From Candidatus Dojkabacteria bacterium (GTDB lineage Bacteria; Patescibacteriota; Dojkabacteria; B142; OLB20), in contig DAOMOX010000001.1 of assembly GCA_035444565.1 (NCBI GenBank), positions 450,335 through 514,334 on the forward strand: a stretch of DNA of 64,000 bases, given 5' to 3'. A model generated the notes under the pieces. The model did not search any database and was not told the DNA's origin. It saw only the letters and a list, made by a program, of their open reading frames with translations. Positions 2,411-24,617 of this stretch are shown in pieces. The position numbers were made by a program, and so were the translations under genes. The stretch's first letter is position 1. Each line of letters starts with the position of its first letter.

Positions 2411-3661
2411 ATGAGGTTACATCCAAAGTTAAAAAATGTTTCAATTCCGCGCTCACCGCTCAATATCTTTTTCCTGTCTTTCTTTCTGATAATCATTGCA
2501 GATGGGACTATGAGCTATGTTTTTCCGATAGTAGTAGAAGACAGCTTAAGCTCGAACACTTTGATGGGAATAATTATGGCGTTATCTTCAATTACAGGAT
2601 TGATTTGTGATTTTATCTTTCCCTCATTAATCTCACGTAAGAACTCGAAACAACTATTAATAGCATGTGCTCTAATGGCGCTTTTATTCCCTGTACTTTC
2701 GTATTTTGGAGAGTTATTTAATCTTGTCGGGTTTTTTGTACTAGCGAGTATTGCCTGGGGTGTTTATTATGAGTTCTTAGCTTTTTCGCAGCAAAACTAC
2801 ATTATCGAAAGCGATAAAACCAAAAATTTCACAAAGGACTGGGGATTACTAGCAGTATTAATAAGCATGATGGAGGTAATAGCCCCAATATTAGGGTCAA
2901 CTCTTTTGGTGGCAGGTGGATTGGCTTATCCAGTAGCAGTTCTTTTGATGCTTTCTGTGGCATTGGTAATATTGATGTTACAAGAATCTAAATCAGAAGA
3001 AGATGTTGAAATAAAAAGTGTTAGCAGAGAGTTGGTGAAGTTAATTAAAGAATTCAAGATGTGGGATTTGCTTTACGGCAGGGTGTGGCAAGTATTACTC
3101 GTATCGTTTGTTTTACAAAGTGTCTTCGCAACATATTGGACATTCGGAGGACTGTTTGGACAACAATTAGTGGGGGAAGAGGGGATGGATTGGATAGTTA
3201 TAGTTCTTTATGCAATTCCTTCGTTGATTGCATCTCTTCTGCTCTCCAAATTTATGATAAAGAAAAACAAGAAAAAGCTTACACAAATATTCCTAATCTT
3301 TGGTGGTTTGATTTTGACAATGTTGGTTTTTGCCCGTGAATCTGTTTATTTAACTGGACTGTTAATTTTGCTATCTAGTTTAATGTTTGCATTTGCTTAT
3401 CCATTAAATAATGCAGTCTTTAGTGACTTAGGAGCGCGATTGGGTAAAGAGAAGAACCACTTGTTCGGAATGATGAACGCTATCGGATCTCTAGCTTTTA
3501 TTATGATTCCGATTGCTTTAGGAGTATTAAGCGATACTTTTGGATATATTTATGCGTTCGCTTTCACTGGAGCGTTTTCTATGATTGCGGGAACCCTTTT
3601 GATTATTAAAACACCACGGAAGATTCGTCTGCCTCAAAAGGAAATTCAATCAATGGATTAA
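2411..3661 (+). CDS. MFS-type transporter-like membrane protein (about 12 TM)
   Basis: 416 aa with 11-12 predicted helices in a 6+6 arrangement around a charged central loop. The substrate is unknown. Confidence 0.45.
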   Translation: MRLHPKLKNVSIPRSPLNIFFLSFFLIIIADGTMSYVFPIVVEDSLSSNTLMGIIMALSSITGLICDFIFPSLISRKNSKQLLIACALMALLFPVLSYFGELFNLVGFFVLASIAWGVYYEFLAFSQQNYIIESDKTKNFTKDWGLLAVLISMMEVIAPILGSTLLVAGGLAYPVAVLLMLSVALVILMLQESKSEEDVEIKSVSRELVKLIKEFKMWDLLYGRVWQVLLVSFVLQSVFATYWTFGGLFGQQLVGEEGMDWIVIVLYAIPSLIASLLLSKFMIKKNKKKLTQIFLIFGGLILTMLVFARESVYLTGLLILLSSLMFAFAYPLNNAVFSDLGARLGKEKNHLFGMMNAIGSLAFIMIPIALGVLSDTFGYIYAFAFTGAFSMIAGTLLIIKTPRKIRLPQKEIQSMD

Positions 3662-4314: not shown

Positions 4315-5748
4315 ATGAAAAAAAATAAAAACGCTAAAACAATTTATGTGGAAGGAATGCATTGTGCATCATGCGAGTTACTCATCGAAAAAACACTTGA
4401 AGAATATCCGGGTGTCAAACAAGTTGATGCTTCATTGGAAAAGGGTCAGGTGAAAATCGTATCCGACAAAAGTGATTCTGTAGATATTGAAAAACTAAAT
4501 AAGGAATTTAAAGAAGCTGGTTATAAATTCAGTAATAAGCAATTTCCCAAGGAAAGCTATAAGTTAATTGAATTGACTGATGCCGGGATCGAGATAAACA
4601 GAGATAAATTTTATGAATATTTAAAAATATTTGGAATTCTCGTCTTTGTGTTGGTTCTTGTTATGTTAATCAATAATTCCAATATTGGCAGATATGCAGG
4701 TGTGAATGTAAATTCATCTCTACCTGCATTCTTGGTCCTTGGTATTGTCGCTGGCTTATCTAGTTGCGCTGCTTTGGTTGGAGGATTATTACTGGTCATG
4801 ACTAAGCAATGGAATGATTTATACATTACTGACAAAACAAATAAACTCAAATTTCAACCTCATATCTTATTCCACACTGGACGGTTAGTAGGTTACTTCG
4901 TTTTTGGAGGACTATTGGGATTACTTGGCCAGGTAGTTTCAATAGGAAGTGGAACATCTTTTGCAATTGTCATCATTGCGGTTTCTGTCGTTATGTTGGT
5001 TCTGGCATTGCAAATGATCGGAGTCAAACAGTTGCAAAACCTTCAGGTAAAAACTCCAAAAGTAATTAGTAAATTTATTACAAACGAATCGAATTTTTCA
5101 GGGAAATATGCCCCATTTATTCTTGGTGCATTGACGTTTCTACTTCCATGCGGATTTACATTGATTGCACAAGCCGCTGCTCTAGCTTCTTCAGGGTTTC
5201 TCAAAGGTGGTTTGATTATGTTGCTATTTGCTATCGGAACATTACCAATATTAGGTGGGATTAGTTTGACTGGAGTTAAATTCAACACAAAGCCGAAACT
5301 CACCTCGATGTTTAATAAAACGGCAGGAATTTTAATTGTCGTTTTCGCGATTTATACAATAAACAGTCAACTAAATGTTCTAGGCTTGAAAAGCTTAAGC
5401 GATTTGGAACTCAGAAGTAATAATACCGCCACGGAAAAAGTTGATCAAGAAGTTTCCGACAATCCCGTGATTGATGAAAATGCACAGAAATTAATTATTG
5501 TTGCAGATGATTTTTCTTATATACCACAAGGCTCAATGACAATAGAAGCCGATAAACCAACAGTGTTAGCGGTAAACAATAAAGGTGTACAAGGTTGTGG
5601 AAGATTTATGGCAGCCAGAGGATTAATCGATAATTTTGTAGAGTTGGACGATGGTTGGAACTATGTTGAATTAACTCCAAAGAAAGGCGTTTATAAACTG
5701 ACATGTACCATGGGCATGGTACGTCCTGTGACAATCACGGTTATTTAA
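4315..5748 (+). CDS. HMA-domain membrane protein (DsbD_2/CcdA-like thiol membrane domain), putative copper handling/transfer protein
   Basis: An N-terminal HMA domain (GMHCASCE = GMxCxxC) is followed by a 6-8 TM domain with two conserved membrane Cys (SSCAAL, LLPCGF) and a ~100-aa soluble C-terminal domain. It lies between csoR and copA. Confidence 0.55.
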   Translation: MKKNKNAKTIYVEGMHCASCELLIEKTLEEYPGVKQVDASLEKGQVKIVSDKSDSVDIEKLNKEFKEAGYKFSNKQFPKESYKLIELTDAGIEINRDKFYEYLKIFGILVFVLVLVMLINNSNIGRYAGVNVNSSLPAFLVLGIVAGLSSCAALVGGLLLVMTKQWNDLYITDKTNKLKFQPHILFHTGRLVGYFVFGGLLGLLGQVVSIGSGTSFAIVIIAVSVVMLVLALQMIGVKQLQNLQVKTPKVISKFITNESNFSGKYAPFILGALTFLLPCGFTLIAQAAALASSGFLKGGLIMLLFAIGTLPILGGISLTGVKFNTKPKLTSMFNKTAGILIVVFAIYTINSQLNVLGLKSLSDLELRSNNTATEKVDQEVSDNPVIDENAQKLIIVADDFSYIPQGSMTIEADKPTVLAVNNKGVQGCGRFMAARGLIDNFVELDDGWNYVELTPKKGVYKLTCTMGMVRPVTITVI

Positions 5749-22191: not shown

Positions 22192-22443
22192 CCTGAATTA
22201 AAATTTCGTAACTATTTATTAAGTAAATTTCTACCCAAGTTTTTTCAAAAGTTTATTATATTGTCCCTCGGTCAAGAATATCCTATGAACGTTAGGATTT
22301 TTAGTATCTCCCGTTAATGTTGCTGTATCTGATACTCCCCAATTTGTTATGGTCATATTTGTTATATTTAAGTCCAGGGAGAAGTATTTTGGAGATTTAT
22401 TAATTTCATCTTTTAATATAGCTTATAGGCAATTTTATCTGTA

Positions 22444-22842
22444 TTAATTATTCCTCGTGCTTTGGTTAAGAGCAACTGCATCTTTAACTAATTTCTTAAA
22501 TGCTGATTCATCTAATTTGTCTTCCTCGTGAATAATAATGGCTCGATAACTATTTATAAGACCTTTTTTATCCATCTCTTTGAGGGCTGGCCCTTTGGAG
22601 AAAGCAAATCTTAGATGTTCTTTATATGTTTCTCCTGTTGTGAGCATACCGTTTTTATACCAAACAAAAACCCCAGCGGGATTAGACGGCGTTTTATATT
22701 TAACCTCTTCTTTTATTTCCGGATCAGCTTCTTTGATTAATTCCCTTATTCGGGACATAGTTTTAATTCGCCAATCGCTTGAAGTTGAATTTTCCATAAA
22801 TTTAATACGAGAGAAGTTTGAATACTCAATAAAATGTAACAA
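22444..22842 (-). CDS. DUF1801 (YdhG-like) domain protein
   Basis: LIKEADPEIKEEVKYKTPSNPAGVFVWYKNGMLTTGETYKEHLRFAFSKG matches the DUF1801 pattern. The true start may be an internal Met. Confidence 0.45.
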   Translation of the reverse strand: MLHFIEYSNFSRIKFMENSTSSDWRIKTMSRIRELIKEADPEIKEEVKYKTPSNPAGVFVWYKNGMLTTGETYKEHLRFAFSKGPALKEMDKKGLINSYRAIIIHEEDKLDESAFKKLVKDAVALNQSTRNN

Positions 22843-22944
22843 TTACAATCCTACCTACACAAGTCTTTGAGTAGGCATGGAAGCGCTTTCGACTTCACCC
22901 CACCTTGGCAGTGCAAGCTCAGCCAATACATTAAAAATACTAAA

Positions 22945-23029
22945 CGGAGAGGACAGGATTCGAACCTGCGGTCCCTTGCGAGACACTTCGTTAGCAGTGA
23001 AGCGCTTTCGACCACTCAGCCACCTCTCC
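22945..23029 (-). tRNA. tRNA-Ser (anticodon GCU)
   Basis: GGAGAGGTGGCTGAGTGGTCGAAAGCGCTTCACTGCTAACGAAGTGTCTCGCAAGGGACCGCAGGTTCGAATCCTGTCCTCTCCG. It has a 7-bp acceptor, a 3-bp D stem with a long loop, the anticodon loop CUGCUAA (U33, A37), a long variable arm and a TTCGAAT T-loop. CCA is not encoded. Confidence 0.8.
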
Positions 23030-23266
23030 GTTTAGTATTTTTTTAAATCCATTTCCACCTTTGTATGATTTTACCAGTTTCTCATAATCATAGGCATCTT
23101 TACTTGACTCGAACTCTCTATACATAAATAACGCCCAAGGCTTGTATCGAAAAACAAATCTGCGCTTATCAGTCCCATTGTGATGTTTTAGCCGTTTAGC
23201 CAAATCTTTAGTACAGCCAATATAGTACTTGTTATCAATGTTTTTTAAAATCTAAACATAATGCAT
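22991..23266 (-). pseudogene. GIY-YIG nuclease (YhbQ/UPF0213-like), copy 1, with an in-frame TAG at codon 5 and a 3' end overlapping the tRNA-Ser 5' end
   Basis: MHYV-TAG-ILKNIDNKYYIGCTKDLAKRLKHHNG...PWALFMYREF...EKLVKSYK matches the YhbQ GIY-YIG pattern (..wylYllr...g.lYtGiT.dl.rRl.qH..G). The last codons (..NGEVAE) are encoded by the acceptor/D-arm of the tRNA. Confidence 0.5.
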
Positions 23267-23643
23267 AGATTTGAAGCACGCCTTTAGCAGTATAAGCTTT
23301 CGACTTCACCCCGCCCTGGCGGGGCAAGCTCAGCCACCTCTCCGTTTAGTATTTTTTTAAATCCATTTCCACCTTTGTATGATTTTACCAGTTTCTCATA
23401 ATCATAGGCATCTTTACTTGACTCGAACTCTCTATACATAAATAACGCCCAAGGCTTGTATCGAAAAACAAATCTGCGCTTATCAGTCCCATTGTGATGT
23501 TTTAGCCGTTTAGCCAAATCTTTAGTACAGCCAATATAGTACTTGTTATCAATGTTTTTTAAAATCTAAACATAATGCATAGATTTGAAGCACGCCTTTA
23601 GCAGTATAAGCTTTCGACTTCACCCCGCCCTGGCGGGGCAAGC
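23016..23643. repeat. two tandem direct repeats of 314 bp (23016-23329 and 23330-23643), with partial third and fourth copies at 23644-23658 and 23739-23762
   Basis: Visual alignment shows near-identical copies. Each unit is a tRNA-Ser 5'-end segment plus a GIY-YIG ORF plus a tRNA 5'-half mimic. Confidence 0.85.
23284..23580 (-). pseudogene. GIY-YIG nuclease, copy 2 (duplicate within the second repeat unit)
   Basis: The same ORF with the same in-frame TAG. Its C-terminus runs into the degenerate tRNA-like segment. Confidence 0.5.
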
Positions 23644-23914
23644 TCAGCCACCTCTCCGCATAGGTCTTTAAGCACTAAGTTTATCAGCCGTAATCTTGAT
23701 GAAGGTTGATTTACCCACCGTAGTTTCAACAAAGGTGGGCCACCTCTCCGTTTAGTATTTTTCTGAAACCTATTCAATCAAGTCCTCAATTATATCAACA
23801 CCCAACACAATCTCACAAATCAATCGAATTTACAAAACTTTAATGATTCCTTCATACAATAAATATGCTACACAGTTATTATATGTTCATTAATTTATTT
23901 ATTAAGTTTATTTT

Positions 23915-24163
23915 ATGGGAATCTTAGTATTCATAGTAATCGGTCTAATTGCCGGTTGGATTGCATCTGTAATTATGAAAACAGATGGTAGTCAAGGTAT
24001 GGTAGGAGATATTATCGTAGGTATTTTGGGTGCACTTATCGGAGGACTTGTAATGAGTTTCTTAGGCGGACAAGGTGTAACAGGGTTTAACTTGTACAGT
24101 ATTGTAGTGGCAGTTCTTGGTGCAGTTATACTATTGGCGGTTGTAAAAGCGGTTAAGAAATAA
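23915..24163 (+). CDS. GlsB/YeaQ/YmgE-family small membrane protein
   Basis: GILVFIVIGLIAGWIASVIM...GMVGDIIVGILGALIGGLVMSFLG is the characteristic pattern. Confidence 0.75.
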   Translation: MGILVFIVIGLIAGWIASVIMKTDGSQGMVGDIIVGILGALIGGLVMSFLGGQGVTGFNLYSIVVAVLGAVILLAVVKAVKK

Positions 24164-24206
24164 CTTAATTTAATCATATTTTTTATATAATTATTAATAG
24201 AATAAA

Positions 24207-24617
24207 ATGGAAGAAGTAAATACACATGTTGAAACGAGCCGTACTGTTGACCCAATGTCAGGTACAGTAGTTAAAAGACAACATGTAGTTAGAGAGAATG
24301 GTTTACCTGAGGATGAGTTTGCTTTGGCGAAATTCAATCAAGTGATTTGGTATATAACTCACCTGATTGTGATTTTAATTGTACTAAGAGTTTTATTCTA
24401 TCTGTTAGGTGCAAACCCACAGGGGATTGTAAGTTTCATTTATAGCTTAACAAATTTATTTGTCGCACCATTTAGAGGAATATTTCCTTCACCATCAGAG
24501 TCTGGATCATTCTTTGACACAGCAGGTGTGGTTGCAATAGGGTTCTACTATTTATTAGCATTTATAGTTACAAGTTTCTTGAGGATATTATCTAAAAGAA
24601 ACGTAGAACAAATCTAA
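24207..24617 (+). CDS. YggT-family membrane protein
   Basis: The YGGT-like core is LIVLRVLFYLL...TNLFVAPFRGIFPS...FDTAGVVAIGFYYLL. Confidence 0.6.
   Translation: MEEVNTHVETSRTVDPMSGTVVKRQHVVRENGLPEDEFALAKFNQVIWYITHLIVILIVLRVLFYLLGANPQGIVSFIYSLTNLFVAPFRGIFPSPSESGSFFDTAGVVAIGFYYLLAFIVTSFLRILSKRNVEQI

Follow-up and report, generated by a model that had tools for sequence, protein, structure and literature searches.

A small GIY-YIG nuclease gene, a conserved GC hairpin and tRNA gene copies in tandem at a Dojkabacteria tRNA-Ser(GCU) locus: a candidate selfish cassette in decay

Exploring a 64,000-nucleotide stretch of a Candidatus Dojkabacteria genome (GenBank assembly GCA_035444565.1, contig DAOMOX010000001.1, positions 450,335 to 514,334; the whole stretch is called the window hereafter), we found on its minus strand a tRNA-Ser(GCU) gene preceded by a tandem array of 314-bp units, in each of which an open reading frame (ORF) of the GIY-YIG nuclease type is combined with a fragment of the tRNA gene that carries a GC-rich hairpin (H). 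On balance we take the locus to be a decaying tandem array of a small selfish nuclease cassette that lies in a tRNA gene and brings a replacement tRNA along, a reading that we regard as somewhat probable rather than firm. The tRNA is the single one called by ARAGORN in the window (22944-23030, minus strand) and it matched Rfam RF00005 at 22945-23029 on the same strand with 58.4 bits, in agreement with a preliminary description of this DNA made from the sequence alone; no further Rfam family reached threshold in the window. That description had also seen two perfect 314-bp tandem units here, and over 23015-23658 Tandem Repeats Finder reported a period of 314 with 2.1 copies, 100% matches and 0 indels, as did a repeat finder (family D1). 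The partial third and fourth starts that it listed fall into family D2 of the repeat finder, and the further copy that it placed on the other side of the tRNA was recovered at 22885-22925, 90% identical to the hairpin region of the unit (family D3).

The two units are 100% identical. Within each unit tRNA nt 1-15 are followed by a 25-nt hairpin element, tRNA nt 18-25, a decayed anticodon/T region, the ORF and a leader, the D-loop 'TGG' being replaced by the hairpin element (CTTG-CCCCGCC-AGG-GCGGGG-TGAAG). Within the 64 kb, the core of this hairpin, CCCGCC-N-GGCGGG, is confined to 23310-23323 and 23624-23637, with 0 occurrences expected from shuffled sequences. The segments that carry it had been described as tRNA mimics; as tRNA-like structures they gave no covariance-model score even at E<=10, and judged by their identity to the neighbouring tRNA they are best described as tRNA gene fragments with an insertion.

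The ORF of each unit reads MHYV-TAG-ILKNIDNKYYIGCTKDL... and matched the Pfam GIY-YIG domain PF01541 with E=1.6e-14 and 54.4 bits (cut-off 22.6) over profile positions 1-71 of 78. Its final codons, NGEVAE..., derive from the 5' sequence of the tRNA, so that the nuclease ORF with an in-frame TAG and a tRNA-encoded end, as first described, was found again. In unit 1 the ORF runs through the tRNA fragment and the hairpin of unit 2 before its stop. We rejected a recoding of TAG, given that all three stop codons terminate long ORFs in the window (TAA 35, TGA 15 and TAG 8 among 58 long ORFs). The TAG stands at codon 5 of both copies, where homologs have the invariant catalytic Tyr5 of the GIY motif and a related strain (L001) has TAT; of the two residues proposed earlier for this position, Leu and Tyr, only Tyr was borne out, in every homolog. 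The catalytic set is incomplete in both window copies, Tyr5 being replaced by the TAG, and it is full in the homologs of L001 and L003. A downstream start leading to an active enzyme was rejected as well: the first ATG, GTG or TTG past the TAG is a TTG at 'MAKRL', with which the GIY and YIG strands are lost. Because TAG is an ordinary stop here and no usable downstream start exists, both window copies are pseudogenes, which had been one of the two options offered for them, next to translation from a downstream start. In L084, a 620-kb Dojkabacteria contig, the disrupted gene at 4777-5025 is annotated as an 82-aa GIY-YIG protein; such a call implies an ATT start right after the TAG, still without Tyr5, and the annotation conceals the pseudogene.

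Intact copies of the gene exist in relatives, and ratios of nonsynonymous to synonymous substitution (dN/dS) of 0.04-0.15 between them, also between units of one array (dS 1.45), show strong purifying selection. The residues kept in the family alignment are Y5, Y15, G17, R25, H29 and E62, and the family has its own KSYKGG motif. Profile comparison to solved structures placed 1ZG2 (E=2.5e-12) and 1YWL (E=3.1e-8) before SLX1 and I-TevI, with a domain of residues 1-80, and Foldseek ranked 1ZG2 first and SLX1 next. The best matches in sequence and fold are thus those of UPF0213 (BH0048, 1ZG2, and EF2693, 1YWL; the E. coli YhbQ group) and of the SLX1 domain, in keeping with the earlier assignment to the YhbQ-like small proteins; all of them share a single GIY-YIG domain with the same catalytic residues. 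Identity to UPF0213 is however only ~30%, and the KSYKGG motif belongs to the cassette family. To our knowledge, UPF0213 proteins have not been linked to tRNA genes or to a hairpin in any account. The AlphaFold model of P0001, a database protein 87% identical to the window ORF, has a predicted local distance difference test score (pLDDT) of 82.9, and its predicted elements (E2-8, E14-19, H22-29, E45-52, H55-67, H72-78) fit the beta-beta-alpha-beta-alpha-alpha fold of GIY-YIG domains. The model is confident over residues 1-80 and poor over the tRNA-encoded tail. Given this low confidence, and given that unit 2 of L003 and the tRNA-Tyr loci have their own stop codon ahead of the tRNA, we concluded that the tail is incidental read-through. 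The protein consists of the catalytic domain of ~80 aa alone, and the DNA-binding domain of Seg-type homing endonucleases is absent. NCBIfam holds no model specific to the family and gave a weak match to TIGR01453 under its cut-off, and the PADLOC matches, to PDC-S14 candidate models and to a generic model for homing endonucleases, were weak and covered ~30 residues around the GIY-YIG motif only.

Proteins encoded near the locus are identical to database entries from Candidatus Dojkabacteria metagenome-assembled genomes, and five other versions of the locus were recovered (L083, L084, L085, L001 and L003). Within the species, L083 and the 620-kb contig L084, whose flanks are 99.5% identical, have a single TAG-bearing unit, and L085 (coverage 39) carries two identical units with the TAG, each differing from the window units by the same 5 single-nucleotide polymorphisms. 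L001, with flanks 96% identical, and L003, a further species with other flanking genes, each have two diverged intact units; downstream, L003 further carries a tRNA copy that is almost full-length and bears the hairpin. The window unit is itself chimeric, its first ~235 nt agreeing in type with unit 2 of L001 and its final ~80 nt with unit 1. Judged from these versions, unit number is polymorphic (1 or 2) within the species and units are homogenised within arrays; polymorphic copy number together with homogenised and chimeric units indicates that recombination between units has taken place. The repeated insertion or recombination at the tRNA gene that the preliminary description had suspected is supported by the same observations and by the diverged units of the relatives. 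The nuclease is dead in every haplotype of the species while the tRNA is retained.

The association of ORF, tRNA and hairpin extends far beyond Dojkabacteria. We examined 82 loci from species-representative genomes, holding 93 ORF copies and chosen by one peptide pattern; all relatives are metagenome-derived and some of their taxonomic labels may be wrong. With the pattern used, ~153 relatives were found among 185,579 species genomes, and the nuclease family, which comprises 4,092 clusters at 50% identity (E<=1e-10), spans the candidate phyla radiation (CPR), Bacteroidota and other phyla. The ORF ends at -8 to +35 nt from an intact tRNA of the same strand in 50 of the 93 copies, the adjoining tRNAs being Ser-GCU, Ser-GGA, Ser-UGA, Tyr-GUA, Gly-CCC, Pro and Glu, and the ORF tree groups by tRNA isoacceptor. 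The top ten homologs, 51-87% identical where full-length and including Magasanikbacteria and Dojkabacteria proteins, end in ...NGEVAEW.KA..C, which is translated tRNA-Ser(GCU), with the exception of P0002, which ends in the hairpin version. Hairpin-derived peptides were also found in spurious N- or C-terminal extensions of 31 of the 150 best representatives. Many database proteins of the family (P0001-P0010, P0053, P0084, P0071, P0110 and P0147) are lengthened at the N- or C-terminus by translated tRNA or hairpin DNA (e.g. GEVAEWSKALHC, AEWSKALYPAMAG, SSVVECLSRQGG). Some 'fusion' proteins of ~205-214 aa (P0026, P0027) matched in two stretches each, as could result from reading through tandem units.

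Hairpin H (core CCCGC/GCGGG) lies <=120 nt from the ORF in 61 of the 82 loci. Its density near the ORF is 2.06 per kb versus 0.065 per kb in the remaining locus sequence, and an unbiased scan for perfect 7-bp GC-rich hairpins returned 51 CCCCGCC/GGCGGGG and 19 TCCCGCC/GGCGGGA. What had been noted as an oddity of one D-loop is therefore a sequence-conserved element that accompanies the nuclease family across phyla and tRNA types. Its stem core is invariant, compensatory variants occur at outer and inner pairs only, and its loops measure 2-5 nt. Since the stem sequence is conserved while loop length varies, the alignments point to H acting as a folded hairpin or cruciform and not as a rigid duplex site. 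H is always found within a loop, or replacing an arm, of a tRNA copy: in the D-loop (Ser, Tyr), after nt 10 as a second site, in the D-arm (Pro), in the anticodon arm (Gly-CCC) and, in some fragments, in the T-loop. At L011 (3355-3410) and L010 (2870-2925) one H lies inside the loop of another, which suggests insertion of the element into hairpin loops, its own included. ARAGORN calls pseudo-tRNAs in which H takes the place of the D-arm tRNA-Pro (L041 2878-2954 and 3237-3313, L043, L070 and L032). Exceptional thermodynamic stability was not significant, with z = -0.3 for the tagged fragment and -1.8 when the hairpin was folded by itself; it is by conservation, and not by folding energy, that the hairpin stands out. 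A role as intrinsic terminator was rejected, no T tract standing behind the hairpin and the terminator scan being empty, and so was a genome-wide repeat of the repetitive extragenic palindrome (REP) kind, the hairpin occurring at one locus only in the 64 kb.

The order of the parts differs between host groups. At CPR loci the tagged copy, usually truncated, stands before the ORF and the intact tRNA after it; Bacteroidota loci begin with the intact tRNA and a terminator, continue with the ORF and close with the tagged copy and that same terminator, often in arrays. Among the 50 ORFs with an intact tRNA, tRNA nt 1-12 recur <=200 nt upstream in 37, and a tRNA 3' end lies <=450 nt downstream in 13, where at least in L009 it belongs to a neighbouring tRNA-Ser(UGA) with the same 3' end. 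With 5' pieces upstream and 3' pieces downstream, the block of ORF and tRNA is often bracketed by the halves of another copy. In the Moranbacteria locus L011 there are two tRNA-Ser(GCU) alleles (3241-3328 versus 3344-3472): the H-bearing copy is the lineage-typical allele, as in the sister genome L013 (3241-3454), and the intact tRNA beside the ORF is a distinct allele that differs in all stems. Tandem arrays of the nuclease family were found in other phyla as well (L041, L052 and L070). In addition, tagged fragments form ORF-less tandem arrays upstream of the ORF in L052 (2506-2900, 6 x 66 bp) and L072 (2016-2470, at least 4 x 99 bp), and in L033 (3340-3470) an array of at least 2 x ~100 bp, again without ORFs, runs into an assembly gap; arrays of this kind are absent from the 64-kb window.

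The remaining features of the window locus, collected in Table 1, extend the array on both sides. The promoter-like site matches 10 of 12 consensus positions with an extended -10 and lies ~25 nt upstream of the leftmost tRNA-start relic; from its sequence it is probably the tRNA promoter. The relic matches tRNA nt 1-12 at 100%. The degenerate hairpin next to it occupies the 'second hairpin' position known from L002, L007 and L039 (the L002 counterpart reads GGAGAGGTGG-TCCCGCCGTAGCGGGG-TAAA-CTGAG) and folds into a 7-bp stem whose pairing survives G>A and C>T changes, and the spacer that follows may be the leftover of a deleted older unit. The perfect inverted repeat around the intact tRNA, whose trailer is the reverse complement of the last codons of the ORF (KKILN), folds to a 20-bp stem with z = -6.1 and is confined to one lineage (the window, L001, L083-L085 and partly L003); it might have arisen by fold-back repair. 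Past tRNA nt 18-30 the downstream copy continues as unrelated or decayed sequence; fuller versions of it occur in L003 (2614-2701) and L013 (3347-3454). No further member of the nuclease family was found within the 64-kb window. Window genes are short and tightly packed, as is usual for CPR genomes, and the slightly GC-richer part at 42-44 kb holds small ORFs only.

Table 1. Features of the tRNA-Ser(GCU) locus, in window coordinates
Feature	Position	Strand	Details
Promoter-like site	23789..23818	-	TTGTGA, 18 nt, TG-TATAAT; upstream of whole array
Oldest relic (fourth start)	23740..23762	-	13-nt leader AAAAATACTAAAC and tRNA nt 1-10 (GGAGAGGTGG); family D2, inverted repeat I3
Degenerate hairpin	23710..23739	-	CCCACC-14 nt-GGTGGG, then TAAA; follows tRNA nt 10
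52-nt spacer	23658..23709	-	between relic and unit 1; kept in L001, L083, L084, L085
Unit 1, 314 bp	23344..23657	-	tRNA nt 1-15 (third partial start, family D2) 23643-23657; hairpin H 23618-23642; decayed tRNA remainder 23581-23617
Unit 1 GIY-YIG ORF	start 23580, stop 23284-23286	-	TAG 23566-23568
Unit 2, 314 bp	23030..23343	-	tRNA nt 1-15 23329-23343; H 23304-23328; decayed tRNA remainder 23267-23303
Unit 2 GIY-YIG ORF	22991-23266	-	TAG 23252-23254; stop is the anticodon-loop TAA (22991-22993)
Intact tRNA-Ser(GCU)	22945..23029	-	sole tRNA in window
Perfect 20-nt inverted repeat (I1)	22933-22952 and 23023-23042	.	acceptor stem and 13 nt leader/trailer, 100% complementary
Decayed downstream tRNA copy	22868..22924	-	families D3, D6
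Parts of downstream copy		-	tRNA nt 9-15 (GGCTGAG) 22918-22924; degenerate hairpin 22893-22917; tRNA nt 18-30 (TCGAAAGCGCTTC) 22880-22892

Several known systems resemble this arrangement in part. SegB of phages T4 and T6 is a free-standing GIY-YIG homing endonuclease in a tRNA gene cluster (PMC2330249; PMC13096335). SegB of phage T6 cuts inside tRNA genes, the tandem amplification of segB with tRNA-Tyr depends on an active nuclease as well as on UvsX and UvsY, recombination proteins of the phage, and the amplified repeats hold truncated segB in arrays that collapse without selection (PMC13096335). With each amplification step demonstrated for it, SegB is the best mechanistic analogue of the 314-bp array, which it resembles in having a GIY-YIG gene next to tRNA genes, tandem repeats of nuclease and tRNA, truncated nuclease copies and unstable arrays. 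In the family studied here tRNA adjacency is the rule, one or two units occur within the species, and a metagenome scan, which returned a single locus, showed no empty allele. SegB differs, however, in being a phage protein without a conserved hairpin, hairpin-tagged tRNA copies or isoacceptor-specific clades, and it measures ~220 aa with a DNA-binding part; the cassette family is chromosomal, ~80 aa long, nearer UPF0213/SLX1 than Seg or I-TevI, and was not found in phage collections. A phage or plasmid origin was rejected, the phage and plasmid collections giving only distant Listeria UPF0213 matches.

Integrative elements that target tRNA genes share with the cassette the target, an intact tRNA at one junction with a partial duplicate at the other, and the possibility of tandem arrays. 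They carry a tyrosine or serine integrase, extend over kilobases and leave a second copy of the tRNA 3' part, whereas the cassette has no integrase, is 0.3 kb long, duplicates the 5' part (the whole tRNA in relatives) and bears its hairpin on the disabled copy; in the window the unit holds the GIY-YIG ORF only and the duplicated segment is the tRNA 5' part. Group I introns occur in tRNA genes of Patescibacteria, in a study whose main text leaves GIY-YIG unmentioned and in which we saw no hairpin-tagged copies (PMC13011429). A group I intron was rejected here, since neither 22300-24300, searched at E<=10, nor the window, searched at gathering score, matched an intron family, and no Rfam family except tRNA matches the locus. 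The functional tRNA is uninterrupted, which means that splicing is not needed, and the 314-bp unit is almost wholly ORF, in contrast to an intron with a ribozyme core in the anticodon loop. In rRNA genes of CPR bacteria, GIY-YIG-encoding insertions that are not introns are located at the tips or bases of stem-loops, in a study that does not cover tRNA genes (PMC11270868). Both kinds of insertion share with the cassette the host group and structured-RNA genes as targets, and those in rRNA genes also the GIY-YIG ORFs outside introns. REP sequences with their RAYT transposases, IS200/IS605 elements and integron attC sites likewise place a short conserved palindrome beside a gene whose enzyme presumably acts on that palindrome, and the presence of H in loops, its own included, suggests that single strands are recognised in folded form. 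The enzymes of those systems are HUH or tyrosine recombinases and not GIY-YIG nucleases, and REPs are spread genome-wide whereas H occurs at the tRNA locus only. The cassette thus lacks the defining features of an intron, of an integrase element and, being without a DNA-binding domain, of a Seg-type enzyme. In the full-text literature, of which our coverage was incomplete, we found no account of an association of small GIY-YIG proteins, tRNA genes and a hairpin.

How might such a locus arise? The cassette reading starts from what the sequences show: the anatomy of the locus, the co-occurrence of ORF, tRNA and hairpin, the purifying selection, the copy-number polymorphism and the chimeric and homogenised units. 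Cleavage of tRNA genes or of the hairpin by the nuclease, a spread of the cassette by homing and any role of the hairpin are our inference. The cassette would comprise a tRNA copy with the conserved GC hairpin swapped in for one of its loops or arms (here the D-loop 'TGG'), and a UPF0213/SLX1-type GIY-YIG gene of ~80 aa lying immediately 5' of an intact tRNA for the same isoacceptor. It would sit within the resident tRNA gene, between the promoter with the orphaned resident 5' end and, in better-preserved relatives, the resident 3' part; it would disable the resident copy and supply the functional tRNA itself, so that insertion would be cheap for the host. Spread or maintenance would proceed by break-induced homologous recombination with the tRNA halves as homology arms, tandem arrays would result from out-of-register repair, and arrays would grow, shrink and homogenise via homologous recombination between the tRNA-derived repeats, probably started by breaks that the nuclease makes. 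In the Dojkabacteria species of the window the nuclease has died by a TAT>TAG change at the catalytic Tyr5, and the window would present a degenerate stage of the homing-endonuclease cycle of invasion, fixation, decay and loss. As a guess, which the SLX1-like fold leads us to favour, the hairpin is either the structure recognised by the nuclease or the feature that makes the disabled copy uncleavable. Homology-dependent integration could tie lineages to one tRNA without protein specificity. More tentatively, the family may possibly form a new class of minimal self-propagating cassettes of ~0.3-0.5 kb, composed of an SLX1-like GIY-YIG nuclease and a cognate GC hairpin that inserts into loops of folded tRNA-gene DNA and into its own loop, with the target restored by gene duplication and not by splicing or site regeneration.

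A number of points weigh against the selfish-cassette reading. A protein of 80 aa without a DNA-binding domain cannot alone explain isoacceptor specificity. The intact tRNA by the ORF has an unmodified D-loop, so that a nuclease targeting that site would also attack the locus that encodes it. Next to H, the pieces of tRNA are perfect matches to the local tRNA, at loci with ORFs ~50% diverged too; perfect fragments next to such old ORFs would need continuous gene conversion or duplication of local sequence, and simple homing explains neither. In the window the TAG is older than the duplication, so that the duplicated unit was already nuclease-dead and this duplication needed no nuclease of its own. 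No empty orthologous site was found: when metagenome contigs were scanned for exact matches to the 5' half of the tRNA, one locus came up, which was filled, and L003, the nearest other species, is not syntenic. The nuclease family was not found in phage and plasmid collections, and IMG/VR is without relatives. Vertical inheritance with loss could explain the patchy distribution, and some host assignments of contigs from metagenome-assembled genomes may be wrong.

Some of these points would suit a stable operon of benefit to the host, in which the nuclease has a tRNA-linked cellular role, the tagged fragment is a cis-regulatory or processing leader (e.g. a maturation or stabilisation signal dependent on RNase P or RNase Z) and arrays are by-products of unequal crossover. 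The strong purifying selection on intact ORFs and the absence of the family from the phages and plasmids searched would fit such an operon; ORF clades track isoacceptors across classes, compatible with an ancient vertical association, and co-transcription is likely given the position of the array between the promoter-like site and the tRNA. The Bacteroidota copies, moreover, keep their cloverleaf context though H replaces arms, and ARAGORN still calls them tRNA-Pro. We nonetheless consider the operon unlikely: in this species the gene is dead in all haplotypes although the tRNA is kept, the distribution is patchy (the ~153 relatives given above), many loci show serial or nested hairpins, ORF-less tagged arrays and split resident tRNAs, L011 holds two different tRNA-Ser(GCU) alleles, and most tagged tRNA copies of CPR are truncated and unable to fold as tRNA.

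The ORF-less tagged arrays that precede the ORF in L052 and L072 (described above) bear on another explanation, in which the tagged tRNA-like RNA is a partner of the nuclease, either as a type III-like RNA antitoxin or inhibitor or as a cofactor or guide that is built on a tRNA scaffold and steers the enzyme to its matching tRNA gene. It would agree with this that the fragments flanking H follow the local tRNA sequence exactly and that the sequence of H is conserved alongside the protein across phyla; yet no precedent is known for a GIY-YIG domain of 80 aa that is guided by RNA or cleaves it, most loci have a single, often truncated fragment, defence-system models matched only as weakly as described above and no Rfam family matched, and we hold this partnership to be quite improbable. 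The two identical units of the window might also be an assembly artefact, a repeat traversed twice in the graph, with one true unit. The complete identity of the units, the single unit of L083 and L084 (one of them a 620-kb contig) in 99.5%-identical flanks, and the length of the perfect 314-bp repeat, which exceeds usual assembly k-mers, speak for this. Short-read assemblers, however, are more prone to collapse tandem repeats than to expand them, two units of another sequence type were assembled independently in L085 (coverage 39), and tandem arrays occur in other phyla too (L041, L052 and L070). Because their units are diverged, the two-unit arrays of L001 and L003 cannot be artefacts. An artefact in the window seems to us slightly less likely still than the host operon, if more likely than an RNA partner.

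If the selfish-cassette reading is true, it would describe a third way for a selfish nuclease gene to hold an essential, conserved target without killing its host, namely by means of a spare copy of the target, in contrast to introns and inteins, which splice out, and to integrases, which regenerate the site. It would provide a function for many 'hypothetical GIY-YIG' genes, those of the clusters counted above, and would account for tandem tRNA-like arrays and tRNA pseudogenes of CPR and Bacteroidota. The locus also exposes annotation artefacts: what is annotated as the end of a protein, GEVAEWSKALHC for example, can be translated tRNA, and pseudo-tRNAs with the hairpin pass for tRNA-Pro, by which the tRNA counts of Bacteroidota genomes with such pseudo-tRNAs would be inflated. 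The conserved hairpin with its 80-aa nuclease is a compact candidate for a protein-DNA (or protein-RNA) recognition system.

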